Shown: positions 6,307 to 59,436 of the stretch, piece by piece
How the letters are laid out: each line of letters begins with the position of its first letter
Position numbering within the stretch: the first letter of the stretch is position 1
NCBI GenBank assembly: GCA_963642055.1
Contig: CAVIFQ010000005.1
Location: forward strand, 9,633 to 73,632
DNA: 64,000 nucleotides
Reading direction: 5' to 3'
Source of the DNA: Roseburia hominis
Lineage (GTDB): Bacteria > Bacillota_I > Bacilli_A > RFN20 > CAG-826
Notes under the pieces: model-generated
The model's database searches: none
What the model was told of the DNA's origin: nothing
What the model saw: the letters and a program-made list of their open reading frames with translations, nothing else
Made by a program: the position numbers and the translations under genes

Positions 6307-6768
6307 TCAGAATTCAATGGCTAATCTGGCTTTGTCGAGGTATTCGCGCTTAATGGCGATATCCTTCTTCTTCGCTTTCTCCTTGATACGGAGAGTGATG
6401 TTATCTTCGTTCACATCGATGAGCGTACCCTCCAAGGTGTTCTTCCCTTCATAAGGATGCGAGAGATGGATATTCACGTAATGGTTGAGGTAGTGGTCTA
6501 GCTTATCTAGAGAGAGCGGCTTTTCAGCTCCTAGAGAGGAGACATCAAGCGTATAGGCTCCTTCAATCGGATCATTCTCATCTAGGATCGGATTGATGAG
6601 CTCGCTCACCTTAACTATATCATCGAGCGATATAGCTTCATCTCGATCCACCACGATCGAGAGGGTGCCTCCTGAGGAAGCCCGCGCGTAGGAGATAGAG
6701 AAGATCGAATAACCTTTTTCTCGCAATGGCCCTTCCAAAAGCTCTTTGACTTTGCTTGTTTCTTCCAT
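6307..6768 (-). CDS. rimP: ribosome maturation factor RimP
   Basis: MEETSKVKELLEGPLREKGYSIFSISY... is RimP-like and lies first in the nusA operon. Start chosen at the ATG 7 nt after GGAGG; the track ORF begins 19 codons upstream. Confidence 0.9.
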   Translation of the reverse strand: MEETSKVKELLEGPLREKGYSIFSISYARASSGGTLSIVVDRDEAISLDDIVKVSELINPILDENDPIEGAYTLDVSSLGAEKPLSLDKLDHYLNHYVNIHLSHPYEGKNTLEGTLIDVNEDNITLRIKEKAKKKDIAIKREYLDKARLAIEF

Positions 6769-6957: not shown

Positions 6958-6990
6958 TAACCTGCATTTTTGAAATATCATCGTAGGTTA
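6958..6990. repeat. copy A of a 32-33-bp dyad element (TAACCTRC - AT-rich core - GTAGGTTA)
   Basis: Sequence taacctgcatttttgaaatatcatcgtaggtta overlaps the stop codon of the HipA-like gene. It has the same orientation as copies B and C upstream of that gene. Confidence 0.85.
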
Positions 6991-8291: not shown

Positions 8292-8310
8292 GGAATAAGG
8301 ATATATTTTT

Positions 8311-8408
8311 TAACCTACATTTTCAAATATCATAGTAGGTTATCCGATGTTTCCTACCTTTTGTGTTTGATATTCGTAACCTACATTTTGAAATATCATC
8401 GTAGGTTA
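8311..8408. repeat. copies B (8311-8342) and C (8377-8408) of the 32-bp dyad element, 66 bp apart
   Basis: Copy B is taacctacattttcaaatatcatagtaggtta and copy C is taacctacattttgaaatatcatcgtaggtta. Copy B starts 20 nt upstream of the HipA-like ATG. Confidence 0.85.
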
Positions 8409-8506
8409 CACCCAGCAAAACCCCATAAAGGAAATCGCCGCCAGATTGACGGCGATCTAGTGGAGTCTATCGTATACAGCCTTAAGCGCCCAACGAAGCG
8501 ATTTAT

Positions 8507-10081
8507 CTATATTTCAACGTACTCAATCTTCGAGCGATGCTTCAGACTCTTCGAGTCGTAAGCGATGCCTAGGAGCATCACTTTGCCGTGATATCCATTG
8601 AGCGTCGAGACGTAGTTCCTGTCCTTGATCTGCTTTATGGCCTCATCCGGAGAGTGATCGACTTTCAGCTCGATGATAATCGGGATATAGCCGGGCGCTC
8701 TCGGTGTGAAGAGCAGATCGGCCCTGCCCGTGGGGCAGTTCGGCTCTGGCGTGATCTTGTAGCATTTTTCCGCGTATTTGTACGAGATCCTGACGATCAC
8801 CGCGAGCACGCCCTCGTCGTTCTTGTTGAAGGGGGTCACGAGGTCGGCGTGGTTCTTGTCGAAGGTCTCGTCGATGTAGTCGGTGTTGCCTTTGAGGGTC
8901 TCCTCGAGGAGTTTCTTCGACTCCTGCATCGGGTTGTAGACGTCGGGCCAGGGGATATCCTGGATGGCGTTCACGATCTCGCCTTCTATCTCCTTGTTCG
9001 GGATGAAGCATTTTTTGCTCTCTTCCTCATACCCGAGATATCCAAGGTGTATGAGGACGGTGAGGGCGGCGTCTTTGCTATTCACATTCGTTAGATCGTT
9101 TCGGAACAGCTCGACGTTGACTGGCGCCTTCTCGCCGGCAAGCATCTTTATGATCTCGCCTTTGAGCGCCCCTCCGTCATAGTTCATGTATTCCTTGACT
9201 GGATCGATGTTGCCGGTCGATGTCCAGTAATTCCCGCACAGATGGTCCGTCAAAGCCTCGACGACCGATTTCGGGTTGTAGATCTCGATTCCACTTAGCC
9301 TATATCCATCGTACCAGCTCTTTATCTCGGAGAAATCCATACTCCACTTCTCGCATAGCTCTTTCACCTCTCCCTCGGTGAAGCCGAAGGAGTCGGGGAT
9401 ATCCCGAGGGTTCAGCATGTTGTATTCCTTGAAGTTGTTGAGGTCGGATTCGGAGGAATACCTCTTGATCGGGAGGATGCCGGTCATGTAGACAAGGTCG
9501 AGATAGGATTGGGCGTCGCTCGATTTGAAAAGGGCGCTGAGGAGTTTCATGTAGGAGTCGCAGAGTTCTTTATTGCTCGCCTCTTTCCTGAAAAGAACGT
9601 CCCATTCGTCGATGAGGAAGATGAAGCGCTCCCCGGTCTCGTTGTTTATCCTGCTAAGGCATTCCATAATCGTTTTCTGGTTGCTCGTCAATATGCCGGG
9701 GAAGGCCTCGTCTAGATCCGATCTCACGAATCGCACCAGCTTGTTCAGGAAGGCTCTGCCGCTTCTGGAGTCGTTATAGATCGATGCCATGTCGATCCAT
9801 ATCACGTTGTGCTTGTTGAGATGGCTCTCGAAAGAGGGGTCATCGTATATTTTGAGCCCTTTGAATAGTTCTTTGGAGGAGCAGCCTTTCGAGTAGTAGG
9901 CGTTGAGCATGGAGAGGGCCATGCTTTTGCCGAAGCGTCGGGGGCGCGTCACGCACATGAATCTCTTCGCTTTGCCGATGGAATCGTTCGTCGCCTTGAT
10001 GAGCATCGATTTGTCCACATAGATATCGTCATGGACGTTATCCGAGAACGTTTTATTGCCCTTGTTGAGAAAAATTGGCAT
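8507..10081 (-). CDS. AAA-ATPase_like (PF09820-type) N-terminal domain fused to a PD-(D/E)XK nuclease domain (PDDEXK_9/DUF1703-type)
   Basis: N-terminal motif FMCVTRPRRFGKSMALSMLNAYYSKG. C-terminal motif GRADLLFTPR...IIIELKVD...AIKQIKDRNY. The family assignment is from memory of these motifs. Confidence 0.7.
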   Translation of the reverse strand: MPIFLNKGNKTFSDNVHDDIYVDKSMLIKATNDSIGKAKRFMCVTRPRRFGKSMALSMLNAYYSKGCSSKELFKGLKIYDDPSFESHLNKHNVIWIDMASIYNDSRSGRAFLNKLVRFVRSDLDEAFPGILTSNQKTIMECLSRINNETGERFIFLIDEWDVLFRKEASNKELCDSYMKLLSALFKSSDAQSYLDLVYMTGILPIKRYSSESDLNNFKEYNMLNPRDIPDSFGFTEGEVKELCEKWSMDFSEIKSWYDGYRLSGIEIYNPKSVVEALTDHLCGNYWTSTGNIDPVKEYMNYDGGALKGEIIKMLAGEKAPVNVELFRNDLTNVNSKDAALTVLIHLGYLGYEEESKKCFIPNKEIEGEIVNAIQDIPWPDVYNPMQESKKLLEETLKGNTDYIDETFDKNHADLVTPFNKNDEGVLAVIVRISYKYAEKCYKITPEPNCPTGRADLLFTPRAPGYIPIIIELKVDHSPDEAIKQIKDRNYVSTLNGYHGKVMLLGIAYDSKSLKHRSKIEYVEI

Positions 10082-10128
10082 AAGTGTGCCCTCCTTTCCC
10101 TATATTGTAGCACATAAATCGGCCGCTC

Positions 10129-11319
10129 CTACGGCCTCCCTTTCCAGTCGGGCGAGAGCATCGCGCCACTCATCTCGTCCCATTTAAGGCTTCTGGCGGC
10201 CCGGACCACGTCTTTCGCGATCTCTTTGTTCGGGATGAAGCATTCTTTGCTCTTCTCGTCGTAACCTAGATAACCCAGGTAAATCAGCGTGGTCAAGGCC
10301 TCGTCTCTGTCATCGATCTCGTCGAGGCCGCCCCAGAACGAGCCGACGTCAACACGCAATCTCCCGCCGTCCATGAGCGCCTCGAAATCGCCTTTGAGCT
10401 CGCCGTTATTGAAATTCATGCACTGTGCGAGGGGATCGCGCGAGGCTGTGAATATCCAGCGCCCCTCGCACCTATCCTCAATGGCGTTGTTGACCGATAT
10501 CGGGTTGTAGATGGTTACACCATCCATCAGATAGGAGCCGAACCAGCATTTGATTTCGGAGAAGTCTCTGTCCCATTTGACGCATAGATCCTTGACCTCC
10601 TCTTCCGTGTAGCCGATGGACTCCCTTGTAACGGAAGGACGAGCGGCGCTGCAATCGATGAAATTGTTCAGCTCGCATCTGAGAGCGAATCTCTCGATAG
10701 GGAAGATGCCGGTCATGTAGACGAGGTCGATGCACCGAGAGACGTCGCCCGATTTGAAAAGGCTGCTCAAAAACCGCATGTAGGAATCGCAGAGGGCCTT
10801 GTTGGTGGGCTCTTTCCTGAAGAGCACGTCCCACTCGTCGATGAGGAAGACGAAGCGCTCCCCCTTGTTGCCAAGATCTTTAAGGGCAAGAGCAAGGGAA
10901 GATGACTCATCGGCGTCATGCTCGAGATGGGCGTCCGAAAAAGCTTCCTTGAGATCGAGATAGATGTACTTTTTGAGTTTTTTGACGAAGTCCTCACCTT
11001 CATCGAGCATGTTGTAGACCGATGCCATGTCGATCGATATCACGTTGTGTTTGTTGAGATGCTCTTCGAAAGAGGGATCATCGCATATCTTGAGGTTCTT
11101 GAACAGTTCCCTTGAATCGCAACCTTTCGAGTAGTAGGCGTTGAGCATCGAGAGAGCCATGCTCTTTCCGAAGCGTCTAGGCCGCGTCACGCACATGAAT
11201 TTGTCTGGAGTTCTGATGAGCTCATTGGTCTCCTTTATGAGCATCGATTTGTCTACGTAGATATCGTTTTTGAGGTTCTTGATGAACAGCGCGTTGTCTT
11301 GGTTTAGATAGAATGGCAT
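10129..11319 (-). CDS. truncated paralog of the upstream AAA-ATPase_like protein, lacking the PD-(D/E)XK domain
   Basis: Starts MPFYLNQDNALF...FMCVTRPRRFGKSMALSMLNAYYSKG and runs parallel to the neighbour as far as LGYLGYDEKSKECFIPNKEI, then ends. Start set at the ATG 8 nt after GGAGG; the track ORF adds 57 unrelated codons. Confidence 0.65.
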   Translation of the reverse strand: MPFYLNQDNALFIKNLKNDIYVDKSMLIKETNELIRTPDKFMCVTRPRRFGKSMALSMLNAYYSKGCDSRELFKNLKICDDPSFEEHLNKHNVISIDMASVYNMLDEGEDFVKKLKKYIYLDLKEAFSDAHLEHDADESSSLALALKDLGNKGERFVFLIDEWDVLFRKEPTNKALCDSYMRFLSSLFKSGDVSRCIDLVYMTGIFPIERFALRCELNNFIDCSAARPSVTRESIGYTEEEVKDLCVKWDRDFSEIKCWFGSYLMDGVTIYNPISVNNAIEDRCEGRWIFTASRDPLAQCMNFNNGELKGDFEALMDGGRLRVDVGSFWGGLDEIDDRDEALTTLIYLGYLGYDEKSKECFIPNKEIAKDVVRAARSLKWDEMSGAMLSPDWKGRP

Positions 11320-11475
11320 CGTTTCATCCTCCTGCCGACATTCTACCGCAGCAACCTCGCCTATAAGGCGGACATCTTTTGTCCGCTTTTGGGGGCAAAT
11401 GCTGCTTTTTTGGCTCGATAACCGCTGGAAGGGAGGAAGGAAATAATCACCTTCACCGATACTTATGGGCATATG

Positions 11476-11501
11476 AAAAACCCCTCGCAATTGGGCAAGG
11501 G
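11476..11501 (-). terminator. rho-independent terminator after the DegV gene
   Basis: On the minus strand: CCCTTGC-N6-GCGAGGG followed by GTTTTTC. Confidence 0.5.
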
Positions 11502-13024: not shown

Positions 13025-14386
13025 TTACAAGCAGAAAGTCATGTAGACGGGAAGAGCGATCGTCCCGTCTATTTTTACGCTGAGGTTTTTCGGGTGAATG
13101 ATATAGCTAGCCATGATTCGATCCTTGAACTTGGCTTTAAAAGCATCGAGGGAGCTCGTTTTGTATGATTTCCCCGATTTGACCTCGATCGGGATGAGTT
13201 TTTTCGATACTTTGCTCCCGGAAGTCAAAAGAAAATCGATTTCGATGTCGTTCCGGTGCTTCTCGGGGGAATATTGGGTATAAAAATAGAGCTTGTAGCC
13301 ATTCGCGACGAGGGATTGAGCGACGACGTTCTCGAAAAACATGCCCTTGTTTATCGATAGTTTCCCAGATAAGAGCTCCTTGTGGTAAAGAGGGTCCGCC
13401 TTCTCGCCGTCGGAGAGAGAATGCGTCAAAAGAAGGCCGGTATCGCCCATGTAGCATTTGATGTAGTTCCTTTTCTCGTTGAGCGAGAGGCCGAAATTCG
13501 GATCGGCGCACATGAAGCATTCGTTGCAGATGAGTGAATCGGCGAGCCAAAAGAAAGTCTCTTCGTAAGCGATGGCTGTATCTTCTTCCCTGATCGATTT
13601 TATCCTGACCCTTTTCTCGTGCTGGGAGAGAAAAGAGGGCAACTGATCGAAAATGGAAAGGACTTTCGCTTTATATGAGCGATCGATTTTGCCGATATCG
13701 TCCCGATAAGCGTCCAAAATATCCCTTTTCTCACTCTCGCATGCCTCGAATTGCTTGTTGTTGGCGATGAACTCATCGACGGCTTTGGGCATCCCGCCGA
13801 CCAGCATATACTGCTTGAACAAGAACATCGCTCTTTTGTGAAGCGGGTCAAGCAATGGCTCTTTTTTGTTGAAGCAGTCCTTGATGTAGTCGGTTAATCC
13901 CTTTTCGTTCAGCGCCCAGGCGAATTCCTCGAAATCCATCGGATACATCCTGAGTTTTCTCTCTTCGGAGGGGATTAGGATATTTTTCGTGTTCTCTTTT
14001 ATCGAGATGAGAGAACCAGTCTCTATATAGTCGTAACGGCCATCTTTGACTAAATGCTTGATTGCCTCTCGCGCCCTCGGGAATGATTGGACCTCATCAA
14101 AGATAAGAAGGGATTCCCGAGGATACAAGGTTGTCTGATATTCCACCGAGAGGATCATGAAAAGGGAATCCAAGGAATCGAGCATATCGAGGAAGGCGTT
14201 TTTGATGGACGGCTTAGCCTTCGAGAAATCGATCAGGATATAGCTTCTGTAATTCTCTTTCGCAAACTGCTCAACGATGGTCGATTTGCCAATGCGCCTA
14301 GCCCCCTCTATCAAGATAGCTTTCTTCCCTTGGCACTCCTTTTTCCATTCGAGCAGTTTATCGTATACCTTTCTTTTGAAAATCAT
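13025..14386 (-). CDS. AAA_14 ATPase with DUF4143 C-terminal domain
   Basis: Walker A is GARRIGKST and Walker B-like is LLIFDEVQ. The architecture is typical of the widespread 'ATP-binding protein' family of unknown function. Confidence 0.75.
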   Translation of the reverse strand: MIFKRKVYDKLLEWKKECQGKKAILIEGARRIGKSTIVEQFAKENYRSYILIDFSKAKPSIKNAFLDMLDSLDSLFMILSVEYQTTLYPRESLLIFDEVQSFPRAREAIKHLVKDGRYDYIETGSLISIKENTKNILIPSEERKLRMYPMDFEEFAWALNEKGLTDYIKDCFNKKEPLLDPLHKRAMFLFKQYMLVGGMPKAVDEFIANNKQFEACESEKRDILDAYRDDIGKIDRSYKAKVLSIFDQLPSFLSQHEKRVRIKSIREEDTAIAYEETFFWLADSLICNECFMCADPNFGLSLNEKRNYIKCYMGDTGLLLTHSLSDGEKADPLYHKELLSGKLSINKGMFFENVVAQSLVANGYKLYFYTQYSPEKHRNDIEIDFLLTSGSKVSKKLIPIEVKSGKSYKTSSLDAFKAKFKDRIMASYIIHPKNLSVKIDGTIALPVYMTFCL

Positions 14387-14432: not shown

Positions 14433-14528
14433 AAAAGCGCAATCATCGAAAAGGCGATTTTGCCGGAAAAGCGCAATCATCGAAATGGCTATTTTGCCGG
14501 AAAAGCGCAATCACCGATATACCGATAT
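14433..14528. repeat. 34-bp tandem repeat x2.5, then CCGATAT x2
   Basis: aaaagcgcaatcatcgaaaaggcgattttgccgg is followed by aaaagcgcaatcatcgaaatggctattttgccgg and then aaaagcgcaatcaccgatataccgatat. It starts 47 nt upstream of the ATPase ATG (14386) and lies in the divergent spacer to the XRE gene. Confidence 0.9.
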
Positions 14529-14705: not shown

Positions 14706-15098
14706 ATGAATCGAGCAACTTTCATCGACAAAAGAAGGATTGGGGAATCCATCAAATCCCTGCGCAGAAAGAAGAGGCTCACCCAAGCTGATTTAGCGGA
14801 ACGCACTGGTTATAGCGTCCGCACCTTGCGCCGGATCGAGAAGGAGGGCACGGATAACCTCTCGATCATCCTCGTCTTCGCGGAAGCATTAAAAGTCTCT
14901 CCGCTCGACATCCTGAAAGGATGTTTTCTTTTTATACGGAAAAAAGCACTGGCGGGTTTCCCCGTGCAGCGCTTACTCCCATCTGTTATTCATGCACGTT
15001 CACGCCAGGCTGAGCCTATAAGAGCTACCCATAAGCTTCTGGAATGGGCTTTCGCCGCAACAACGGAAGGAACTCGATTATCCTTCAACTTTCAGTGA
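14706..15098 (+). CDS. XRE-family helix-turn-helix regulator; only the first ~72 aa are HTH-like
   Basis: LRRKKRLTQADLAERTGYSVRTLRRIEKEG...FAEALKVSPLDIL is a classic HTH_3 domain. The remaining 58 aa have no recognisable character and run antisense to the structured-RNA candidate. Confidence 0.65.
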   Translation: MNRATFIDKRRIGESIKSLRRKKRLTQADLAERTGYSVRTLRRIEKEGTDNLSIILVFAEALKVSPLDILKGCFLFIRKKALAGFPVQRLLPSVIHARSRQAEPIRATHKLLEWAFAATTEGTRLSFNFQ

Positions 15099-15473
15099 GC
15101 TTCAGCTATTCTTTTGGGGCCATTTTCAGTAGCCAATGACTCCGGCTTTCACCTACTCGCACCCGTCAAAGCAGTTATAGGGGGTTTCCCCTCATCAAGC
15201 CGCGCACTTCCTTTGGGAACGCAGATGCGCTTTTCCCAGAAGCGCATCATCTCGTGGGACATATTTCTATGGAGCCTCTTCTCGTGCCTGCTCGGACGGT
15301 CATTTACATAAAGAAGCGCGCTGCGCCATTAGCCAAAGCGGTCTTTTGATCCCGGGTACCTAATAGGTCTTGATCGCGAGATGATATCTCATCACGTCCT
15401 CTCTCTTGGTTACGCCCCAGCCATCAAGCAAGATGACTTCACTGGGTTCCAATGCCACTCTCCGAAGAGAGCA
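14940..15473 (-). ncRNA. candidate large structured non-coding RNA (~530 nt), family unassigned
   Basis: No minus-strand ORF of 60 aa or more. It starts after an extended -10 (TGTATAAT) and ends at a GAAA-capped hairpin plus T6. Many hairpins are capped by UUCG, GAAA or GAUA loops when read on the minus strand only. Confidence 0.35.
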
Positions 15474-15539: not shown

Positions 15540-16727
15540 TTACCTCGAGAGCCAATCGGCGATATCGATGATTCTGATGCCTTTATAGTCGTATTCCGGA
15601 TGGGAGGTTCTCGCTAAAAGGATGCGCGGATAGAGGTCTTTGATTTTTAGAAGTGGGTCCACTTCTCTCGCGAAGGTCTCTTCGCCTGATATATCATCGG
15701 AGACCTGAATGTAGATTCTCTCGTCTCTTTTTAGGGCCACGAAGTCGATTTCCTTTTTATAGAGCATCCCCACGTAGACCTCATACCCTCTTCGTAGTAA
15801 CTCAATGGCCACGATATTCTCGTAAACTCGCCCATAATCCATATTTCTGATGCCTAGAGTAGCGTATTTCAAGGAATGGTCGCAGAGATAGTATTTGTCA
15901 GAGGAGGTGAGATACTTCCTTCCCGCGAGGTCGTAACGCTTGATTTTATAGAAGAGGAAGGATTGGCATAGACTCTCAATATAGGAGCCGACGGTCTTAT
16001 CGTTCGTCTTCATCACGTTGCTACTCAAAACTTTCCTGATATTGCTGATGGAAGTAAGACTTGCGATATTATCGATCAAAAACGAAGAAATCTTCCTCAA
16101 TAGAACCTGATTCCTGATCCGTTTTCTCTTGATCAGATCCCTCTGGATGATCGTTTCATAAACCGTCGAGATATAGTCGTATTTCCTCTTTTCATTAGGA
16201 TATAGGTAGGAGCCAGGAAATCCCCCTTCATTGACGTAACGATCAAAGGAGAAGGAAGAAGGGGTAAGCTCATGGTAATTCATGAATTCCTTGTAGGAAA
16301 AAGGGAAAACCTTTATCTCGATCGCTCTACCCGTGAAAAGGGTCGCGAGGTCGCTGCTCAATAAAAACGCGTTTGAGCCCGTGAGGTATATATCGTAATT
16401 GCCCGTGGAGTGAAGGCTATTTATCGCCTTCTCGAAGTTCTCGCATAGCTCAACTTCGTCGATGAGCAGGAAATTCTCGCTCCCCTCTTTGTATCGCGAG
16501 ACGATGTATTCATATAATTTGTGGTAATCCTGCAGCTCCTCAAATTCGATTTTGTTGAAATCGATGCAGATGAGATTCGCATCTTGACGATTCTTCACGA
16601 GATACTCGAAAAACGATTCCATGAGAATCGATTTCCCTGAGCGTCGGACGCCCGTGATGACTTTGATATCCGGCGTCCCCATGAGTTCGATTAGTTCATT
16701 CAAATAAGGCCTTTCGATTATTTTCAT
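15540..16727 (-). CDS. AAA_14 ATPase with DUF4143 C-terminal domain (second paralog)
   Basis: Walker A is GVRRSGKS and Walker B-like is FLLIDEVE. Start set at the second ATG (8 nt after GGAGG); the track ORF starts 2 codons earlier. Confidence 0.75.
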   Translation of the reverse strand: MKIIERPYLNELIELMGTPDIKVITGVRRSGKSILMESFFEYLVKNRQDANLICIDFNKIEFEELQDYHKLYEYIVSRYKEGSENFLLIDEVELCENFEKAINSLHSTGNYDIYLTGSNAFLLSSDLATLFTGRAIEIKVFPFSYKEFMNYHELTPSSFSFDRYVNEGGFPGSYLYPNEKRKYDYISTVYETIIQRDLIKRKRIRNQVLLRKISSFLIDNIASLTSISNIRKVLSSNVMKTNDKTVGSYIESLCQSFLFYKIKRYDLAGRKYLTSSDKYYLCDHSLKYATLGIRNMDYGRVYENIVAIELLRRGYEVYVGMLYKKEIDFVALKRDERIYIQVSDDISGEETFAREVDPLLKIKDLYPRILLARTSHPEYDYKGIRIIDIADWLSR

Positions 16728-16767
16728 CCTCATATCCTCCTTTTTTCCTTAGAAGAGCGAATCAGCA

Positions 16768-16920
16768 TTCATTTTCTTGAACTATTTTTGATGTTTTATT
16801 TCACGATTTCAATAATTTTTCATTTTCTTGAAGTTTGTTCACTACTTTATTTCAATATTTTGAATATTTTTCATTTTATTGAAGTTTATAAAGCGTTTTA
16901 CTTCAAAAAAATGAATGTTT
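16768..16920. repeat. 51-bp tandem repeat x3 built around TTCATTTTCTTGAA
   Basis: TTCATTTT(C/A)TTGAA occurs at 16768, 16819 and 16870, giving an exact 51-bp period. An inverted partial copy, cttcaaaaaaatgaa, lies at ~16901. The array starts 41 nt upstream of the ATPase ATG. Confidence 0.85.
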
Positions 16921-17013
16921 TTTGCCTCTTGAGACGGGCCTTCAAGGTCGTAAGGCTGACTACTGCCGTCTCAAATCTTGCACGCAAGGAAATGCCGAAT
17001 GAACGTCAGGCAA

Positions 17014-35675: not shown

Positions 35676-37103
35676 TCATTTGACGAGGTATTTTCTGCCA
35701 CTCGTTGGAAGATTGTTCGATTCGATGAATCCTCCCTCCTGGAGCTCTTTGATGATATTGTTCACGTAGGTCCTCGAAAAACCCAGATGGTCCTGGATGT
35801 CCTTTGGCCTAACGCCAGCTTTCCCTTTGGAGGCGATGTATTCAAGGGCCTTTCGCTTATTCACGGAGAGCTCATCTCCCTCTTTTTCCTTTTTCTTTAG
35901 ATAGATAATGAAGGAGGTTTCCTCTGGATGGGCTTGTTCAGTTAGTAAGGGCGTAGGCAAAGAAAGAGTTTCGGCGGAAGAGAAGAGGTTCGGTATCCCC
36001 GTGCCCGCTTTATCGGAAATGCCCAAAAGCCGGAAAAAGGTGTGTATTTGGGCATTCCTTGGCCCGCTTTTCCCGCCTTTTAAGGCTTGCTTCAATCCGA
36101 CCTTAACTCGCCCAGCGTTTCTTTCGATGAGCTTATCCCCCGTCAAAAGAATGGTTAACCCGCCATATAGCAAAACGGCATAATTGCTTAAGGCATTCAC
36201 GAGGAGCTCCCGCAAAATCGCTTGGCCTTTCAAAGCGCCGATATCCTGGTCTTTTGAGGCTATATAGGGCTTAGGCATAAAAGGCTCCGCCCTTTGATAC
36301 ACCAAAGAATAGAAATCGAACATATTCCCTGACCAGCCCATATCATCGGCGACGATGCGGTAATTCCATTTATCCTCGAAGGAAGAGGCTTCCCGATAAT
36401 CGAGAAGATAATCCTGAAAGACGGAGACGATCTTGAAGTAGTTGCTAAACATAAGGAGAGCCCCATTCGTCAAGACAGGTTCACCGTTACTATTTTTGGC
36501 GAAAGCGCCGATGGCATTAAGGAAATCCTTGTCGCTCAACGATGAATAATAGCTTCTAGGATGAACAATTTCGTATTTCTCCCTGAAAGAGTGAAGAGTC
36601 TCTATGTTCACGTCCTCGAAACCGTAATTCATCTTATTGGGGAGATAGTCGTAATTCTCGGTGGAATTATCGATGAGCATGGAGCGTATCTCATTCACCT
36701 CGGCCTTATGATCCCCTTCCCCTACTCTGATATAGGAATCAGCGAGATTGGAATTCAGAAAGACGGGCTTTTCGTTCCTTGGGGCTTCGTGAATATCAAC
36801 TTTGATTATTTGCTTGCCCTCTATTTCGATAACCTCGATATTCGATTCATTGATGAGAGGAAGAGAGACCTTCGTCTTGTTTCTCGATGTAGCGAGAATC
36901 GCATCGATCATCTGTTTAGGATTCTTTACGCCGATAACCTCATTCCCGTTTGTTACCTCCTTGATTCCTAGATAAATGGTTCCTCCTTCCGTATTCGCGA
37001 AAGAAGAATATGTATCCCAAAAAGAAAGAGGGAGCCCGTGCTCCGCCCCTTTAAGCTCAAGGGTTTCGCTTTCTTTCAGTTCACTTATATCTCTTAGTGT
37101 CAT
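35676..37103 (-). CDS. AlbA_2 (Schlafen-like) + HATPase_c_4-like + C-terminal wHTH protein (putative DNA-binding ATPase/regulator)
   Basis: N-terminus is ESETLELKGAEHGLP...SSFANTEGGTIYLGI. The middle contains LRELLVNALSN. The C-terminus is ALEYIASKGKAGVRPKDIQDHLGFSRTYVNNIIKELQEGGFI. Confidence 0.75.
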   Translation of the reverse strand: MTLRDISELKESETLELKGAEHGLPLSFWDTYSSFANTEGGTIYLGIKEVTNGNEVIGVKNPKQMIDAILATSRNKTKVSLPLINESNIEVIEIEGKQIIKVDIHEAPRNEKPVFLNSNLADSYIRVGEGDHKAEVNEIRSMLIDNSTENYDYLPNKMNYGFEDVNIETLHSFREKYEIVHPRSYYSSLSDKDFLNAIGAFAKNSNGEPVLTNGALLMFSNYFKIVSVFQDYLLDYREASSFEDKWNYRIVADDMGWSGNMFDFYSLVYQRAEPFMPKPYIASKDQDIGALKGQAILRELLVNALSNYAVLLYGGLTILLTGDKLIERNAGRVKVGLKQALKGGKSGPRNAQIHTFFRLLGISDKAGTGIPNLFSSAETLSLPTPLLTEQAHPEETSFIIYLKKKEKEGDELSVNKRKALEYIASKGKAGVRPKDIQDHLGFSRTYVNNIIKELQEGGFIESNNLPTSGRKYLVK

Positions 37104-37122
37104 AGGCTTTATCTCTTAAACA

Positions 37123-37230
37123 AACTATACAACTAAATTCGCAAACTATACAACTTTTCTTTAAAACTATACAACTAAACTTTGCAACTATACAACTAAA
37201 CTTGTCAACTATACAACCAAACTATAAAAC
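37123..37230 (-). repeat. 21-bp tandem repeat x5 (plus 1 degenerate) with core AACTATACAAC (GTTGTATAGTT on the coding strand)
   Basis: Cores at 37123, 37144, 37165, 37186 and 37207 give an exact 21-bp period; a degenerate copy lies at 37220. On the gene strand each core contains TGTATAGT, an extended -10-like octamer. The first core is 20 nt upstream of the ATG. Confidence 0.9.
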
Positions 37231-37429
37231 AAGAGCCTCATTCAAGTGCCATCCAAAAACGGCCAAACCGGTAAAAAATATGGCATCGCTCTTATTGTTT
37301 TAATACGTCGAGGCAAGAAAAAGAGCAATCGTAATGGCGAACATCAAGATACGTGTATTTCATACGGGCGAAGTGTGCGTGGCGGTGGAAATTCGCGAAA
37401 AAGATCAGCAAGTAATAGCACAACGTCAA

Positions 37430-37463
37430 TAAAAGCCACCGCGTATTTCATCGGTGGCTTTTA
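37430..37463. terminator. bidirectional terminator 3' of the beta-helix-like lipoprotein gene
   Basis: AAAAGCCACCG-N10-CGGTGGCTTTT. Confidence 0.6.
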
Positions 37464-37479
37464 TGAATGTAGGGGGCAT

Positions 37480-38790
37480 CTATTTGTAGCTAATAGAGGA
37501 AGTTGAGCCGTAATAGGTCTTGCTCGTATCCCAATCTTGGTCATTGAGCTTGACACTGACGCTCGCTCCGTTTTTGCCGGTCGTCCCCCATTGATTAGTG
37601 GCTTCCGCCACCATGAGGTAATCGGAAGAGGAGGCTTGAGTGAAGCTGTTATCGCTTAAGGTAACGACGGCCGTGATATTGGTGAGATAGAACATCGGGA
37701 CATCGCTCGTGGTGACTATAAAAGAGCAGGAGGTGGCGTAGAAATAGTCGGTGCCTTCGCTTGAATCGCCAGAGAAGGACTGATAGATGAAGATGCCACC
37801 GCGATCGATGACGTGAGTCGAGGAAGAAGAATCGCTTGTGCCGCTTCTATTGCCATCCCCTGAGCAAGAGAATGAGCAATCAGTGAGCGTCGCGCTTGAC
37901 CCGCCCTCCACCACGACCATCTGGGCTTTATTGGCGGTGCCAGAGGAAGAAGAGACGGTGATGGAATCGGTGCTATAAATAAGAGGAGAGCCATTCGAAT
38001 TGGTCTCGAGTTCCATATTGCTTGCGACGATACTGCCTCCACCCCTATCATTGGCGAGAGCCGCGCAAGAAGCGCCTTGTGTGGTTATCTTGACATTATT
38101 CGCCGTGATATCGCCGCCATAAGTGGTATGTAATCCCCTTGAGCCCGCGGAACCGCTGGTGCTGATCGAAGAAGAGGAAATCGTGATTTGACCATCATTT
38201 GTAGCCACAACAGCATTGGAGCCATTGCTCGAAGTTACGATATCCGCGTATTCGATCGTCGCTGAGGAGGCAGAGCCCGAAACCACGATTCCCGAGTTGA
38301 TGCCGTAGAAATTGTAATCATCGGACACTTGGCCGTTGCTCGCCGCGCTGCCGCTTTTATTCACGCTGACGTAGTTATCGCTGCTGCCTTTGATAGAGAG
38401 AGTGCCGCCATTGACGACGAGGAAGACAACTTGGTTAGAAGAAGAAGAGGCACTTATGTATTCCCCAGAGGTGATTTCGACTTTCACCCCATCGATAAGA
38501 TAGGCAGCTGAGATCGTCTTCGTGGTCGTTTGTCTCCCGTAGACGAATGAGAGGGAGGCACTGCCGCTTTTTATCTCATTGCCCGATGTGTCATAGAGTT
38601 TATCGGAGGTAGTACTCGCTGAATTTGAGGTGCCTGAAGAAGTGCTGGTAGATGAGCTGCCTTTAGATGACGAGCTACTCTCAGTTGATGAAGAAGCGGT
38701 GTTGCCACTGCTGCTACCTATATTCGCTGAGCAAGAGGCGCAGAGCAGCGTAACCGCGAGAGCTGGAATCAATAATCTGGATTTTTTCAT
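37480..38790 (-). CDS. surface lipoprotein, Ser/Gly/Thr-rich with parallel-beta-helix-like repeats; function unknown
   Basis: Lipobox LLCASCS and a poly-S/T linker. Repetitive blocks such as GGDITANNVKITTQGASCAALANDRGGGSIVASNMELETNS suggest a beta-helix fold. Confidence 0.55.
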   Translation of the reverse strand: MKKSRLLIPALAVTLLCASCSANIGSSSGNTASSSTESSSSSKGSSSTSTSSGTSNSASTTSDKLYDTSGNEIKSGSASLSFVYGRQTTTKTISAAYLIDGVKVEITSGEYISASSSSNQVVFLVVNGGTLSIKGSSDNYVSVNKSGSAASNGQVSDDYNFYGINSGIVVSGSASSATIEYADIVTSSNGSNAVVATNDGQITISSSSISTSGSAGSRGLHTTYGGDITANNVKITTQGASCAALANDRGGGSIVASNMELETNSNGSPLIYSTDSITVSSSSGTANKAQMVVVEGGSSATLTDCSFSCSGDGNRSGTSDSSSSTHVIDRGGIFIYQSFSGDSSEGTDYFYATSCSFIVTTSDVPMFYLTNITAVVTLSDNSFTQASSSDYLMVAEATNQWGTTGKNGASVSVKLNDQDWDTSKTYYGSTSSISYK

Positions 38791-38979
38791 AAGAGGTTCT
38801 CCTTTGCTGGATGAAACAACAATAAAAGAGCAACCTTAAAGGAACCTTAAGGATGTAGAAAAAATCCGGAAAAGTTATTTTTGATGAGATTCAGCGGATC
38901 GGAAACACAAAACCAACCAGCCATAAGTGACCTTATAGTGGCGATTTATCGTTACCGAAGATGGCGGATTTGACGCAAA

Positions 38980-39045
38980 AGTTTTGGGAATGAATTCCAA
39001 AAACTTTCTGAAATCGCATAGTTTTTGGAATTAATTCCAAAAACT
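38980..39045. repeat. two 26-bp palindromes 40 bp apart (AGTTTTTGGAATTAATTCCAAAAACT perfect; AGTTTTGGGAATGAATTCCAAAAACT imperfect)
   Basis: Read directly at 38980-39005 and 39020-39045. They lie in the 411-bp spacer between the AlbA_2 gene 3' end and the lipoprotein gene start, and may act as terminators. Confidence 0.85.
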
Positions 39046-39201
39046 TTTTAAGATTCTGATAAAGCATTGACGACGTTATTGGCATTCAATCGACGACATT
39101 TCTCGTCAAAAAATGAATCAAGCCTGTGTTTTTTATAACCGTGAGAAAAACGAACGATTATCAAAATGTTTCAGTAGAGAATCTTCAGCAAAAGTTAATA
39201 A

Positions 39202-40608
39202 TCAACGCGAAATTCGCCAATATCCTCTTGTGCCACCGATTCTTTCAATGATCTTTTTGTCTTTCAAAGAGTCGAGCGCTCGTTGAATGGTTCTAGCCGA
39301 TCTGCCAGATTTCTCAGTGATTTCGTATTTAGTAATGCGCGGATTATCCTCTATTTCTTGAAGGATTATCTTTTCAAATTCGGACAACGAATCGGTGGCA
39401 TCGTTAGCGACATCATTGGTGATGTCATTGGCGACATCATTACTGGCGCCATCATCGACATCATTGGTGACATCGATAACGTCATTGGTGCCATTGTTGG
39501 TATTGTTGCGATAAAAAACAAACCAAAATCCATCGATTTCTTTTTCGTAACCGACCTTGACATTGCTCTTCTTACAATATGAATAAGTCTTCGAAAAGCC
39601 AGTGCCCCACTTCTCGATGGCTTTGCATCTAAATAAGACATCGCAAATCAATTCGTTTCTGACCTTGGAAGAGATGGCTTTGTTCACGAAATCCTCGGGG
39701 TTATAGCCATCGGGAAAAGCGCCTGGGTTATAAATTGCGATTCTATTTGGAAATATATCGATTTCGTTCTTGCTCCACCCTACGTAATTGGCGTGAGCAA
39801 AAGAATTGACGATGATCTCCCTTAAAGCGTCGAGCGGCACTTCAGGCACGTCAGTCCTATCGAAGCCCTTGATTTGGACGCTCCAGTGTATGTTCTTTTT
39901 GATGTATTTCTCAGATTCTTCGATCAAGCTGAAAATATTTCCTTTAATAGGCGATATATCGATAAATGTCCTCTTTTCATTGGTGGCGAAAACCGCCATT
40001 TTAAGCTCAATCGGCCCTTTATTCGAAAACAAGAAGCGGCCAGCGTTATTCAAATGGAATTTATCGGCCGCTAGTAAACCAAGTTGCTCAAGAAGAGCGG
40101 GCTTATCGTATTTCATGGTCCCGATTCTTCCGCATGAAATGGCTTTATCGAAGAATTTGGCCAATTGGTCTTCGTCAACATCATCGATGGTGTCTTCCGA
40201 TTTTTGCTTTTCCCAGGATTTATAATTCACTTCAATGATCATTCTGGTGAGCTCATCGGGAGTCATTTCCCTGCTTTCGTCAGAAACGCGGACATAGTAT
40301 CTCCCGAAAGCGGAATACGGCCTTTCGTTTCCTTCGAAGGTGACTTTGATGATTCTTGAATCAGGAACTTCTTCTATGACGGGGAAAATCTGTGGCTTGA
40401 GCTTTTCGAATATTCTTCTGGAGATATCTCTTTGGGTATCTTGGCCAATGTCGAAACCGATGGCATCGCCGTTATTTTTAACGCCAAAATACAAAATGCC
40501 GCGCCCATGCTTATTGAGAATGGCTGCTATATCGATGATTGAGTCATCGAGCTCATTCGTCGTTTCTTTGAATTCCAGTAATTCCGATTCTTTTCCAAGG
40601 TTCATCAT
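39202..40608 (-). CDS. AlbA_2 + HATPase_c_4-like + C-terminal wHTH protein (second paralog) with an (N-D-V/I-x)n linker
   Basis: N-terminus is ESELLEFKETTNELDD...GRGILYFGV. The middle is LREIIVNSFAHANY...IAIYNPGAF. The linker is NDVIDVTNDVDDGASNDVANDITNDVANDATDS. The C-terminus is a wHTH (ITEKSGRSARTIQRALDSLKDKKII). Confidence 0.75.
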   Translation of the reverse strand: MMNLGKESELLEFKETTNELDDSIIDIAAILNKHGRGILYFGVKNNGDAIGFDIGQDTQRDISRRIFEKLKPQIFPVIEEVPDSRIIKVTFEGNERPYSAFGRYYVRVSDESREMTPDELTRMIIEVNYKSWEKQKSEDTIDDVDEDQLAKFFDKAISCGRIGTMKYDKPALLEQLGLLAADKFHLNNAGRFLFSNKGPIELKMAVFATNEKRTFIDISPIKGNIFSLIEESEKYIKKNIHWSVQIKGFDRTDVPEVPLDALREIIVNSFAHANYVGWSKNEIDIFPNRIAIYNPGAFPDGYNPEDFVNKAISSKVRNELICDVLFRCKAIEKWGTGFSKTYSYCKKSNVKVGYEKEIDGFWFVFYRNNTNNGTNDVIDVTNDVDDGASNDVANDITNDVANDATDSLSEFEKIILQEIEDNPRITKYEITEKSGRSARTIQRALDSLKDKKIIERIGGTRGYWRISR

Positions 40609-40637
40609 GTTGCTTTACCCGCTCATATTATAGCAAG

Positions 40638-40781
40638 TGGCACAAATTTGGCACTAATAATGGCACTAATGGCACTAATGTGGCACCAATTTGGCACAAA
40701 TTTGGCACTAATAACACCAATTTGGCACTAATCGTGGCACTAATGTGGCACTAATGGCACTAATCATGGCATCAATGGCAC
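40638..40781 (-). repeat. array of 13 TGGCA(C/T) hexamers plus 1 degenerate copy, mean spacing 10.6 bp (TTAGTGCCA on the gene strand)
   Basis: Hexamer starts are 40638, 40649, 40661, 40670, 40681, 40692, 40703, (40713), 40723, 40735, 40746, 40755, 40767 and 40776. The array starts 30 nt upstream of the ATG and overlaps the -35 position of a TGCTATAAT promoter (-10 at 40627-40632). Confidence 0.9.
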
Positions 40782-40878
40782 AAATACCTTTTCGGCCATT
40801 TGTCATATCGGAAGATAGTTCCCTCATATCCCGATATCAAAAAAAGCCTGACCATTTGATCAAGCCTTTAAATTCTAT

Positions 40879-47475: not shown

Positions 47476-49041
47476 TTATAGAAGCGGCGCGATGAGCTTA
47501 AGAAGCGGCCAGTGCCAGCCATACTTCTTCTTGATGGCGCGCCAATCGTCTTTTTTGACCTCTTTCGATTCCGCGAACATCTGTTCGAAGTCGTTTTTGA
47601 TATCTAAGCAAGCTGAGGAATCGGCGATGAAGACCGCGTTCTCGTAGTGGAGGTAAAGCGATCTGTAGTCGAGATTGATGGTGCCGGTGACCGCGAGGTG
47701 GTCGTCCGCCAAAAAGCTCTTTTCGTGGATGAAGCCTGGCGAATATTCGTAAATCCTTACGCCGGCGATAAGTAATTCCCGATAGTAGCTTCTCGATAAA
47801 GAATACACCTGTTTCTTGTCGGGGATGCCAGGCGTGATGATTCTGACATCGACTCCGCTTAAGGCGGCCCGCTTAATGGCTTCGCTCATCTCCCGATTCA
47901 AGATGAGATATGGGGTAGTGATATAGCAATATCTTTCCGCTCGAGCAAGGAGCGAGAGATAGACGTTTTGGCCGACTGCGCTATAAGAAAAGGGGATATC
48001 GCCATAAGGCTGGATGAAGCCGTCGCTACTGGGGAAACCGCCAATCTCATTGATGAAAGTCTTCGGCGAATAGTAATAGATATCGATATTGAAGCTCTTC
48101 TCGAAATTGTCTTTCCATTGGCTTAAGAAATCCAACGTGAGATTGCTGACCGCCTCTCCTTCCAAGCGGACGGCATTATCCTTCCAAACGCCGAAGCGCT
48201 TTTTCTCGTTGATATACTCATCGGCGATATTGATGCCACCCGTATAGCCAGTATGGCCATCGATGACCAAAATCTTGCGGTGATCGCGGTTATTGAGCTT
48301 GACCGAGATAAAGGGCTTGATGGGACGAAAAGAATAAGCCTTGATGCCTTTTTTCCGGAGCTCTTTATCGTAATTTTTCGGGAGCGTCGTCAAAGAGCCA
48401 AAATCATCATAGATGAGGCGGACATCCACCCCTTCTTGCACTTTCTCAAGGAGGATCGAGAGAATCTCACTCCACATCCTCCCTTCAGCGATGATGAAAT
48501 ACTCTAGGAAGATGTAGTGCTTGGCTTTCTTTAAATCGATGAGCATGCTCTTAAAAGCCTCTTCGCCAAGGGGATAATAGGTCACTTTGGTGCGCTCATA
48601 AATCCCGTTCCCTGAGCCTTCCTCGATATAGGAAGAGATGGCGTAAGAAGATAAGTCAGTGCTCTTTAATTTCTCTTTCGTATCGGTATCGGTGGCTGGA
48701 ATCTGCAAGCTCTTCAACAGGCGTATGGACTCTTTTTGCTGGCGCGGCGAGATTCTCTTATTCGCGAAGAGCACAAAAAAGAGGATGCCGACCACCGGCA
48801 AGACGCCGATGGCGAGAATCCAAGCGATTTTGTATTCGCTTTCGGTATTCGTGAAGAAAGCGTAAAGCTCGAAAAAAGCCTGCGCCGCCAGATAAGAGAA
48901 AATCATCGGGATATAGGTCTCTTTGGTCAAAGTCGCGCTGGTGAGTAGATAAAGAAAGGCGACCAGCAGCGCGATTTGGAGGAATATGAGAAAAAGAGCG
49001 AGTATCTTTTGCCATCTCCCGCCCGCCAGAATCCTTTTCAT
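47476..49041 (-). CDS. cls: cardiolipin synthase (PLD family, two HKD motifs)
   Basis: N-terminal TM helices. HKD motifs are NRDHRKILVIDG and IHEKSFLADD. First ATG at 49041; the track start at 49047 is GTG. Confidence 0.9.
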   Translation of the reverse strand: MKRILAGGRWQKILALFLIFLQIALLVAFLYLLTSATLTKETYIPMIFSYLAAQAFFELYAFFTNTESEYKIAWILAIGVLPVVGILFFVLFANKRISPRQQKESIRLLKSLQIPATDTDTKEKLKSTDLSSYAISSYIEEGSGNGIYERTKVTYYPLGEEAFKSMLIDLKKAKHYIFLEYFIIAEGRMWSEILSILLEKVQEGVDVRLIYDDFGSLTTLPKNYDKELRKKGIKAYSFRPIKPFISVKLNNRDHRKILVIDGHTGYTGGINIADEYINEKKRFGVWKDNAVRLEGEAVSNLTLDFLSQWKDNFEKSFNIDIYYYSPKTFINEIGGFPSSDGFIQPYGDIPFSYSAVGQNVYLSLLARAERYCYITTPYLILNREMSEAIKRAALSGVDVRIITPGIPDKKQVYSLSRSYYRELLIAGVRIYEYSPGFIHEKSFLADDHLAVTGTINLDYRSLYLHYENAVFIADSSACLDIKNDFEQMFAESKEVKKDDWRAIKKKYGWHWPLLKLIAPLL

Positions 49042-49284
49042 ACGCACCCTATTCTACTTGCCTATATCGCTACGCGATAGAAATTTTACGCTTTTAAAAA
49101 GCAAACGCATTAGAATTCGGAAGCGATTCAAAGCATCATCGATAAATGCAGAAATCGTTCCTGATGGAGATATTAGAAGCGCCACGAATACCCTATTTGT
49201 TGCCTAATTTGTCGCCGAAAATCTAGGTTGTTCTTGGCGCAAAACTCGCCAATTATTTCATTTTTACGGGCGCATATTTCAGGG

Positions 49285-49377
49285 CAAAATACAAATTTTC
49301 CATGTTTTTAAAGGCTCCCAAATACAAGTTTTTCATGTTTTTGGAGGCCTCCAAATACAAGTTTTTCATGTTTTTGG
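49285..49377. repeat. 33-bp tandem repeat x3 (CCAAATACAAGTTTTTCATGTTTTTGG)
   Basis: Units start at 49285 (diverged), 49318 and 49351. Each has CCAAA...TTTGG terminal dyads. The array is an orphan in the 564-bp spacer between the cls start and the SDR gene 3' end. Confidence 0.85.
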
Positions 49378-59005: not shown

Positions 59006-59076
59006 CAAGAAAGAGCGGAGATATCGCCGCTCATAACCAGCAAGCAAATTGACGGAGAAGAGCTCATTTAACACCC

Positions 59077-59113
59077 AAAAAAAGCCGTTTTCTGAAATTT
59101 AAACGGCTTTTTG
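59077..59113. terminator. bidirectional terminator
   Basis: AAAAAAA-GCCGTTT-N10-AAACGGC-TTTTT. Confidence 0.55.
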
Positions 59114-59276
59114 CGGGGATATCAGTTATTTGTGCTTGATGGAAATGATAATGGAGAGAGTTCAATCCCTTCTTCCATCTTCTTTAAATGCAATTTGCAC
59201 AGTGTCCATGGGAAAGTTAGGATTTATCGATATTTTTGATCAGATGACTGATGATTTTATACAAATTTCTATTCTA

Positions 59277-59436
59277 TTCGTAAAATGTTATTCGATACGC
59301 ATTACGATTTCGTAAAATGCGATTCATTACACAATACGTATTCGTAAAATGTAATCCATTACACATTACGATTTCGTAAAATGTGATTTGATGCACATTA
59401 CGTGTTCGTAAAATGTGATTTTTGACATGTTACGAA
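59277..59436. repeat. 32-bp tandem repeat x5, each unit an imperfect dyad TTCGTAAAATG-N~12-ACATTACGA
   Basis: TTCGTAAAATG occurs at 59277, 59309, 59341, 59373 and 59405, an exact 32-bp period. The array is an orphan in a ~700-bp ORF-free spacer (59114-59811). Confidence 0.9.

Follow-up and report, generated by a model that had tools for sequence, protein, structure and literature searches.

Winged-helix Rep proteins (Rep_3, RepA, RepE, Pi) bind four to seven iterons and autoregulate, and the ParR/parC (R1, pSK41), TubR/tubC and omega/heptad systems carry 4–12 phased direct repeats upstream of the binder's operon, where cooperative binding on one face of the DNA represses that operon; TubR is itself a winged-helix protein. 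The winged helices of OmpR and PhoB bind direct repeats head-to-tail, with 10–11-bp half sites and 20–22-bp units that replace the −35 element, and the LytTR boxes of Firmicutes (AgrA, ComE, PlnC/D), which are activator sites, consist of 9-bp direct repeats with a 12-bp spacer, usually two of them and upstream of the −35. Here we describe an array of 21-bp direct repeats at positions 37123–37230 of a 64-kb stretch of DNA (contig CAVIFQ010000005.1 of assembly GCA_963642055.1, positions 9,633 to 73,632; the whole stretch is called the window below), located directly before a gene for a Schlafen protein with a C-terminal winged helix-turn-helix (wHTH) domain. With moderate confidence, we interpret this array as the cognate operator of the gene, probably read by the protein's own winged helix and mediating autoregulation, most probably repression.

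Prokaryotic Schlafens have been described as phage-defence tRNases that carry an Ex4(E/D)xK motif (Perez Taboada et al., Nat Microbiol 2026; PMC13056530). In that study HisKinase-HTH fusions accounted for 19.2% of 5,930 proteins and were absent from the seven tested constructs; the fused domains were treated as likely phage sensors, and the text is silent on upstream repeats. The only genetics that we found for this architecture is that of TrlG of Photorhabdus, whose locus restricts growth at high temperature, and our literature search retrieved no description of private repeat arrays before these genes.

On the minus strand, which is the gene strand, the 11-mer GTTGTATAGTT occurs in five exact copies between 37123 and 37217. 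A preliminary description of this DNA, made from the sequence alone, had reported five copies at an exact 21-bp period, and both the exact motif positions and an independent call by the tandem-repeat program TRF (period 21, 4.9 copies) agree with it. The longer unit proposed there, (T)TTAGTTGTATAGTT, holds for three of the five copies and fails as a general unit, as only the 11-mer is invariant. The degenerate sixth copy that had been placed at the distal end was found as well (GTTTTATAGTT), although it lies 13 bp from copy 5 and hence outside the 21-bp phase, and the distance of 20 nt given between the proximal copy and the ATG at 37103 is correct for the octamer TGTATAGT, with the proximal 11-mer ending 19 nt before it. 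Two weak copies, GTTGCAAAGTT and GTTGACAAGTT, are interleaved in the distal half of the array, and an alternation of strong and weak copies is also seen in orthologs (GTTGTATAGTT / TCATAGTTT). The elements of the array and of the gene behind it are as follows:

37123–37133, minus strand: core copy 1, gene-proximal, GTTGTATAGTT; contains TATAGT at 37129–37124
37144–37154, minus strand: core copy 2, GTTGTATAGTT, from the motif search
37165–37175, minus strand: core copy 3, GTTGTATAGTT, from the motif search
37186–37196, minus strand: core copy 4, GTTGTATAGTT, from the motif search
37207–37217, minus strand: core copy 5, distal, GTTGTATAGTT; reads GTTGTATAGTG in three other strains
37220–37230, minus strand: sixth, degenerate copy, GTTTTATAGTT, one mismatch; kept in four of four strains
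37178–37209, minus strand: two weak interleaved copies, GTTGCAAAGTT (37178–37188) and GTTGACAAGTT (37199–37209), offset 8/13 bp
37104–37122, minus strand: 19-nt stretch from the last core to the ATG, with a weak Shine-Dalgarno-like AAGAGA at 37117–37112; identical in four strains
35676–37103, minus strand: Schlafen gene, 475 aa, with AlbA_2 at aa 11–134, HATPase_c_4 at aa ~323–390, a flexible linker at aa ~402–413 and a C-terminal winged helix
35679–35873, minus strand: coding region of the C-terminal wHTH, aa ~411–475, with recognition helix SRTYVNNIIKEL and wing NNLPTSGRKY; proposed reader of the array

When up to one mismatch was allowed, the 64-kb window contained no site for GTTGTATAGTT outside the array; the expected number of matches is 0.33, and six were reached in 0 of 100 shuffles. 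The five cores are 100% identical, whereas the five 10-nt spacers average 37% pairwise identity, a combination that points to selection on the cores rather than to recent slippage or duplication. A search of Rfam at gathering thresholds gave no match at the array, the sole match in the window being a ROOL RNA.

The N-terminal domain of the 475-aa protein matches Pfam SLFN_AlbA_2 (E = 7.9e-15, 55.9 bits against a cutoff of 25.3), and it was matched to 2KYY and SLFN12/14 in a profile search and to 2KYY and human SLFN14 by Foldseek. The Ex4(E/D)xK catalytic motif of prokaryotic Schlafens is present as KESETLELK (E11-x4-E16-x-K18), with E11, E16 and K18 nearly invariant among 21 homologs. For the middle domain, Foldseek retrieved the histidine-kinase catalytic domains of ZraS, YycG and CusS; Pfam HATPase_c_4 scores 24.2 bits here, under its cutoff of 26, and was recorded for nearly all homologs. 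The C-terminus has borderline Pfam matches to MarR_2 (26.6 bits, cutoff 27) and HTH_24 (20.6 bits), and its last 62–70 residues match winged helices of ArsR, MarR and IscR at 1.3–2 Å in Foldseek; the whole chain has a single match, the uncharacterised structural-genomics protein 3LMM. The AlphaFold model, made with 21 homologs, has a predicted local distance difference test score (pLDDT) of 89, with low values at the linker (407–410), and it predicts that the C-terminus is a genuine repressor-type winged helix of the ArsR/MarR type.

All three parts of the pSlfn-HisKinase-HTH class are thereby present (Schlafen, HisKinase-like and C-terminal HTH), and by its domain set the protein is assigned to this catalogued class as a predicted antiviral ribonuclease (RNase). 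For the two Schlafen proteins that the window encodes, PADLOC gave weak partial matches only (pAgo-associated Schlafen, CasR/CARF winged helices), and a search of NCBIfam returned nothing useful.

The array is well preserved where the gene is. Among four conspecific strains (that of the window, L001, L084 and L085), its copies and the leader are essentially unchanged, with the DNA just 5' of it heavily diverged. A comparison of copy numbers between related strains had been proposed in the preliminary description, together with the possibility that the array might be absent from orthologous loci; the count is 5+1 in all four strains, and related arrays are present in orthologs at 62–74% identity. 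Orthologs L002 (74%), L003 (68%), L086 (66%) and L087 (62%) have different neighbours and carry these arrays directly before their start codons, with cores that read GTTTAATAGTT/TCATAGTTTA, GTTG[TC]A[TA]AGTT/TCA[TA]AGTTT and GTTGTAAAGTT. Their 21-bp unit is visibly composed of two half-units of 10–11 bp, which would place all sites on one side of the helix. The array thus travels with the gene. In a relative of 53% identity whose gene is probably truncated (L088, about 2300–2500), two degenerate copies are left, and in a metagenome contig (L093, about 6480–6660) the array precedes a gene remnant of 28 codons, which suggests a joint decay of gene and array. Relatives of 48% and 44% identity have other cores (GAACATGTT/GACATATT and TTAGACAAG, respectively), with the 21-bp double-unit geometry unchanged.

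Scanning metagenomes for two cores 21 bp apart retrieved 21 stretches. The gene family accounts for two of them, the remnant locus L093 and L094 (L003 again); the others were unrelated tandem repeats, with no extra regulon sites among them, and the same scan of viral contigs retrieved none. Long arrays (up to several dozen copies) of 21/24-bp units of the TTGTTGTATAGTTAATAGA.ATTG type were seen in L096, L098, L099, L102, L108 and L110–L112, contigs that look termite-gut metagenomic by their sample IDs and that share the window's 11-mer by chance. Since the unit lengths are multiples of three and the reverse frame is open, these arrays are probably coding repeats.

To place the array in the wider family, we compared the 200 nt 5' of homologs with those of other genes from the same loci in a sample of 80 loci from species-representative genomes, counting a region as positive when at least three copies of a 9-mer (at most one mismatch) stood at helical-phase spacing within 200 nt upstream. 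Phased repeats were found upstream of 29 of the 77 homologs and of 16 of the 125 raw controls (p = 5e-5). Eleven of these 16 control positives were unclean: two were mis-called members of the target family, six were AAA_14/DUF4143 genes, and the remaining three were a Fic-wHTH gene, a Rep3 gene and a case of a downstream Schlafen array (L028). A twelfth control gene, lying just downstream of a Schlafen array in L023, was removed too, and the cleaned contrast is 29/77 homologs against 5/113 controls (Fisher p = 6.5e-9). The spacings in homologs peak sharply at 20–21 bp, a peak that is missing in the controls. The Rep3 gene among the control positives, in L050, has true iterons, so that its detection by the metric is a positive control.

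The enrichment is uneven within the family. Of the 26 closest relatives, 19 satisfy the strict criterion and the remaining seven have arrays that are visible by eye, compared with 10 of 51 among the more distant, mostly longer relatives (484–560 aa), which limits the rule to particular subfamilies of ~470 aa. An HTH is present in 79 of 83 proteins, too uniformly for it to be tested as a predictor of the array. The archaeal homologs L053, L055 and L071 also have upstream arrays, and several relatives on viral contigs have 11-bp arrays with a distal cluster plus proximal copies. Some AT-rich contigs with close homologs (L011, L012, L018, L024 and others) are labelled Escherichia coli, Parasutterella, Alistipes or Phocaeicola ('cleanbin' metagenome-assembled genomes). 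Such contigs look mis-binned, or are possibly mobile DNA, and the apparent mis-binning makes the taxon labels of the family unreliable.

Cores are specific to lineages: we found CCGAAAGA, TGGAAGA, CGAGAGA, CCGGGAGA, TAATGAAT, TTAGACAAG, TTGAACATGTT, GCTCGTGATTT and AGCGTTGATA, with ATTCATTTAAATGTCA in the archaeal members. Most of them are not −10-like (CCGAAAGA, TTAGACAAG, TTAGTGCCA, GCTCGTGATTT); behind them come a separate box of the TATAAT type, a short leader that includes a ribosome site, and the ATG. The last repeat in these relatives borders on or overlaps the −35/spacer region of the TATAAT box. The window itself holds a second gene of the family with an array of its own:

39202–40608, minus strand: second paralog, 468 aa, AlbA_2/HATPase_c_4/wHTH; N-terminal domain ~26% identical to that of the first
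40638–40784, minus strand: array of the second paralog, ~13 copies of TT[AGT]GTGCCA at 9–12 bp spacing, one at 20–21 bp

This second array (TTAGTGCCA ×13) ends 5 nt before a TATAAT at 40632–40627 and 29 nt before the ATG. That two paralogs at a distance of 3.5 kb have different arrays speaks against a host factor common to both, for which gene-specific cores would be unnecessary. The recognition helix and the core also change together across the family, with SRTY[IV]N accompanying GTTGTA[TA]AGTT, KNSST accompanying TGGAAGA, K[NT]TVT accompanying CCGAAAGA and KNTLT accompanying CGAGAGA, and the C-terminal 70 aa diverge faster than residues 1–400 in almost every pair compared. This covariation is consistent with a cognate-operator model.

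A further repeat was seen within the second paralog. On the plus strand at 39396–39493, antisense in the region that encodes its (NDV)n linker, lie ATTGGTGACATC-like units of 12-bp period that end in TTGGTGCCA, which is the upstream core in inverted orientation; the length of the linker varies by strain (468 versus 450 aa for the protein). This antisense array may be a second, putative binding array, or it may be the source of the low-complexity linker.

The position of the array relative to the likely promoter bears on how it could act. The gene upstream of the array ends in a terminator:

37431–37462, minus strand: hairpin and T-run ending the upstream gene 37480–38790, seen in the sequence and conserved in strains

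Given this terminator, the Schlafen gene needs its own promoter within 37104–37430, in an intergenic region of ~320 bp of which the array occupies the last 110 bp; the gene is monocistronic, as a convergent GDSL-lipase gene comes after it. A simple sigma-70 scan of 36900–37600 (−35/−10 pair, 16–18 nt apart, at least 9/12 matches) found no promoter-like site. The best −35/−10 pairing within the array is TTGTAT (3/6), 18 nt, TATAGT (5/6), and the TATAGT of the proximal core (37129–37124) is the sole −10-like hexamer whose spacing to the ATG is workable. As the only usable −10-like hexamer thus falls in the proximal core and no separate promoter was detected in the 320 bp, occupancy of the array should control the access of RNA polymerase.

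We therefore propose the following mechanism for the self-read operator. Direct repeats two helical turns apart present all sites on one side of the DNA, and several 54-kDa protomers, each with its winged helix on a flexible linker, would bind there head-to-tail and cooperatively. In the window the proximal core supplies the sole usable −10-like hexamer; in other clades of the family the last core lies between or over the −35 and −10. Negative autoregulation of this kind would keep a potentially toxic RNase low and buffered, and positive autoregulation is a less likely variant. We infer the winged helix as the reader, the cooperative binding and the sign of regulation from comparative evidence. 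The preliminary description had left three options, namely a multi-start promoter, an RNA polymerase/sigma trap, and an operator for the encoded wHTH that covers its own −10. Since the core changes alongside the winged helix and the array moves with the gene, the operator is favoured among these; the other two have nothing in their support beyond the TATAGT.

Several observations weigh against the self-read operator. Around 20% of the distant, longer relatives have arrays though nearly all of them have the winged helix, so that by this survey the winged helix alone does not appear to predict an array. The covariation of helix and core is confounded by phylogeny, as close relatives share both. 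In the second paralog's group, the proteins of L090 and L091 are the same except for six extra N-terminal residues in the called start of L090, yet the cores before the two genes differ at one position (GTGACA versus GTGCCA; the core in L090 is TTGGTGACA) and the copy numbers are very different, with 13 copies in the window, 12 in L091 and ~5 in L090; either recognition is tolerant or the array is not tightly constrained. Every variant core in the clade of the first gene keeps the key −10 A and T (TATAGT, TAAAGT, CATAGT, AATAGT), and the cores may thus have a promoter role. Finally, the array could be read by the AlbA_2 domain or by some other factor.

An unlikely alternative is that the array serves for docking or looping or belongs to a cassette, rather than being (only) a transcriptional operator: an oligomeric Schlafen would be parked, inactive, on its own repeats, or the repeats would bound a movable gene cassette. 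In the docking form, a DNA-bound filament or loop would hold the protein inactive until a phage-induced perturbation releases it. This idea draws on 12–13 related loci in which the array is repeated 2–41 bp 3' of the stop codon (36–78 bp, 88–100% identical, same orientation), giving an array-gene-array layout whose downstream member has no −10 or ribosome site:

L010, L015, L018–L024, L026, L028 and L029: array-gene-array loci, with the downstream copy after the homolog's stop codon

The downstream array is followed by a terminator-like hairpin in L018 and L029, and in L028 a gene for a class II aminoacyl-tRNA synthetase comes next. Docking would also fit the direct repeats of roughly 75 bp further out in L004, the antisense array in the linker-coding region of the second paralog, the distal cluster and proximal copies of the viral-contig relatives, the published view of fused prokaryotic-Schlafen domains as sensors (PMC13056530), and the varied contexts of the gene, which is found beside a tRNA gene and defence-like genes. 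However, the window's own gene has no second array in the gene or its flanks even at three mismatches, the nearest two-mismatch sites being ~2 kb or more away in other genes, and there is no linked recombinase. Docking is in any case compatible with operator function, and the two are not mutually exclusive.

A broader form of this idea, which we hold to be unlikely as well, is that the winged helix of this large class is not a phage sensor but a tether to a private, co-evolving array at its own locus, with the occupancy of self DNA gating the RNase and infection releasing or activating it. The array may then be placed upstream of the gene, flank it on both sides or be contained in it; the RNase, as an oligomer, would be assembled into a filament or loop on one face of the chromosomal DNA and kept there, and occupancy would gate expression and perhaps activity. 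Candidate triggers would be degradation of DNA, altered supercoiling or a competitor. In addition, a unit laid out as array-gene-array might be mobile, or prone to loss, as a cassette.

That the repeats are instead sites for another trans-acting regulator, notably a LytTR-type response regulator, seems quite unlikely. The period is exactly 21 bp, as for 9-bp repeats with a 12-bp spacer, 9-mers starting from ATAGTT partly fit the LytTR consensus ([TA][AC][CA]GTTN[AG][TG]), and the host looks like a Bacilli-type Firmicute as judged by the ROOL RNA and the nearest homologs. Yet there are five or six copies, which extend across the −10 and stop 19 nt short of the ATG, instead of the usual two 5' of the −35, position 2 of the consensus is violated in 5/5 copies and position 9 in 4/5, and none of the ~48 window open reading frames (ORFs) that were scanned encodes a LytTR protein or response regulator. 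The motif occurs nowhere else in the 64 kb, and the recurrence of the 20–21-bp geometry with different cores before relatives in many taxa, archaea included, points to the family's own protein.

It is very unlikely that the cores act without a binding protein of their own, whether as four or five promoters stacked in phase or as a trap for RNA polymerase or sigma. TATAGT does match TATAAT at 5/6 positions, a TTG stands 18 nt ahead of the next TATAGT in each unit (the weak −35 TTGTAT), all clade variants retain the −11 A and −7 T, and the intergenic region has no other detectable promoter. The preliminary description had further read TGTATAGT as one mismatch from the extended −10 consensus TGnTATAAT, which fails: the sequence is GTTG-TATAGT, with no spacer base between TG and hexamer, and the register is off by one base. 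A sigma-70 extended −10, with TG at −15/−14, was therefore rejected. The TTGACA that had been noted between the two most distal full copies is present (37208–37203) but misplaced as a −35, standing 10 nt from the next TATAGT when 16–18 nt are needed, and it was rejected in that role; it is also strain-specific, reading TGGGCA in the three other strains. Apart from the TGn extension being out of register, the −35-like hexamer reaches just 3/6, the scan found no promoter-like site, and the invariant AGTT part of the core is not a −10 feature. Relatives have cores that are not −10-like, with a separate TATAAT behind them, and arrays before archaeal homologs and 3' of stop codons are not explained by a stack of bacterial −10 elements.

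Lastly, a functionless minisatellite born of replication slippage is extremely improbable: slippage can expand tandem arrays and the array of the second paralog does vary among strains (13, 12 and ~5 copies), but here the cores are identical with diverged spacers, copy number and sequence are fixed in four strains despite diverged flanks, the array is kept across orthologs of 62–98% identity in different contexts, and phased repeats are enriched family-wide.

The window is chromosomal and of housekeeping character, with infB, nusA, rimP, alaS, a MiaB/RimO-type radical-SAM gene, tRNA-Thr and sugar-use genes. The neighbours of the Schlafen gene are the convergent GDSL lipase and a 436-aa gene (37480–38790) that has no assigned role; 5' of the latter, at 38977–39054, two copies of a palindromic AGTTTTTGGAAT..ATTCCAAAAACT stand 40 bp apart. 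The same palindrome is found 5' of an AAA_14/DUF4143 gene in strain L001 (about 430–630), where that gene takes the position of the window's second Schlafen paralog. By this comparison, the segment beside tRNA-Thr looks like a variable island.

Defence-like genes nearby include PDC-S01-type AAA_14/DUF4143, HipA and TacA-like genes. A HipA-like kinase gene (6978–8291) adjoins PDC-S01 genes (window 6978–11490), and AAA-ATPase_like genes at 8507–10081 (with a PDDEXK_9 nuclease domain) and 10129–11490 also stand beside PDC-S01 genes; judged by these annotations, 6978–11490 is a putative cluster of solitary toxin/defence-like genes inside a housekeeping region. The AAA_14/DUF4143 genes at 13025–14386 and 15540–16733 (minus strand) match the PADLOC candidate defence family PDC-S01 (E = 1e-104 and 1e-145). 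They too are preceded by repeats, TGATTGCGCTTTT ×3 at 34 bp and a 51-bp unit ×2.4 (14433–14517 and 16768–16922), and a full-length ROOL RNA lies between the two genes (14934–15470, minus strand; Rfam RF03087, 174 bits, E = 2e-37). Six further AAA_14/DUF4143 genes with upstream repeats were seen in L001, L007, L030 (two genes), L052 and L055, and the habit of upstream repeats may extend beyond the Schlafen family.

Two other repeats in the window were recorded. In the long spacer 5' of alaS, at 59275–59420, a 32-bp, internally palindromic unit resembling CACATTTTACGAA.CGTAATGTG is repeated 4.5 times and is followed by TATAAAAT, then by ~190 bp in which no ORF is convincing and by a hairpin resembling a terminator near 59075–59110; nearer alaS there is a T-box-like stretch, GGTACCGCG, at which Rfam made no call. 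At 49287–49377, a 33-bp unit is repeated 2.8 times (89% matches) 5' of a PLD/cardiolipin-synthase-like gene (47476–49047).

Schlafen-HisKinase-HTH is the second most common architecture of prokaryotic Schlafens, making up about a fifth, and the arrays give its HTH a concrete, testable candidate ligand. They also suggest how a potentially toxic effector is held in check, and they provide putative natural orthogonal protein/operator pairs, of which two different ones lie 3.5 kb apart in the window. The array-gene-array loci, taken with the arrays of the AAA_14/DUF4143 (PDC-S01) genes, suggest that regulation of this sort may be more widespread among solitary genes of defence islands, a habit of which we found no published description.

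The locus resembles the pSlfn-HisKinase-HTH class as catalogued in domain order and in its defence-like neighbours, and differs from it in that the HTH is here predicted to have a cognate ligand in its own promoter. With iterons and their winged-helix Rep proteins it shares phased direct repeats, about two helical turns apart, beside a winged-helix gene, and the length of the repeats falls in the iteron range of ~17–22 bp. Unlike at iteron origins, there is no Rep gene or Rep domain and no plasmid or mobile context; the locus is chromosomal, the repeats cover the promoter and start rather than an origin, and the effector is of RNase type. As in ParR and TubR systems, the array lies upstream of its own gene, but this is a single gene with no linked partition NTPase (ParM, ParA or TubZ), encoding a multidomain, enzyme-like protein of 54 kDa.

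LytTR boxes share the 21-bp period and a partial resemblance of the core (xxAGTTxxx); their full consensus, pair placement and cognate regulator were not found here (the last among the scanned window ORFs), and the Schlafen arrays have gene-specific cores. OmpR and PhoB belong to another winged-helix subtype, are driven by phosphorylation and have a receiver domain, whereas the fold here is ArsR/MarR-like with no receiver. The closest functional counterparts are iteron/Rep, ParR-parC/TubR-tubC and the tandem sites of PhoB/OmpR, each of which is set apart from this locus by its defining features. The new aspect is the placement of a putative autoregulatory direct-repeat operator, itself a known kind of operator, on a new protein family.

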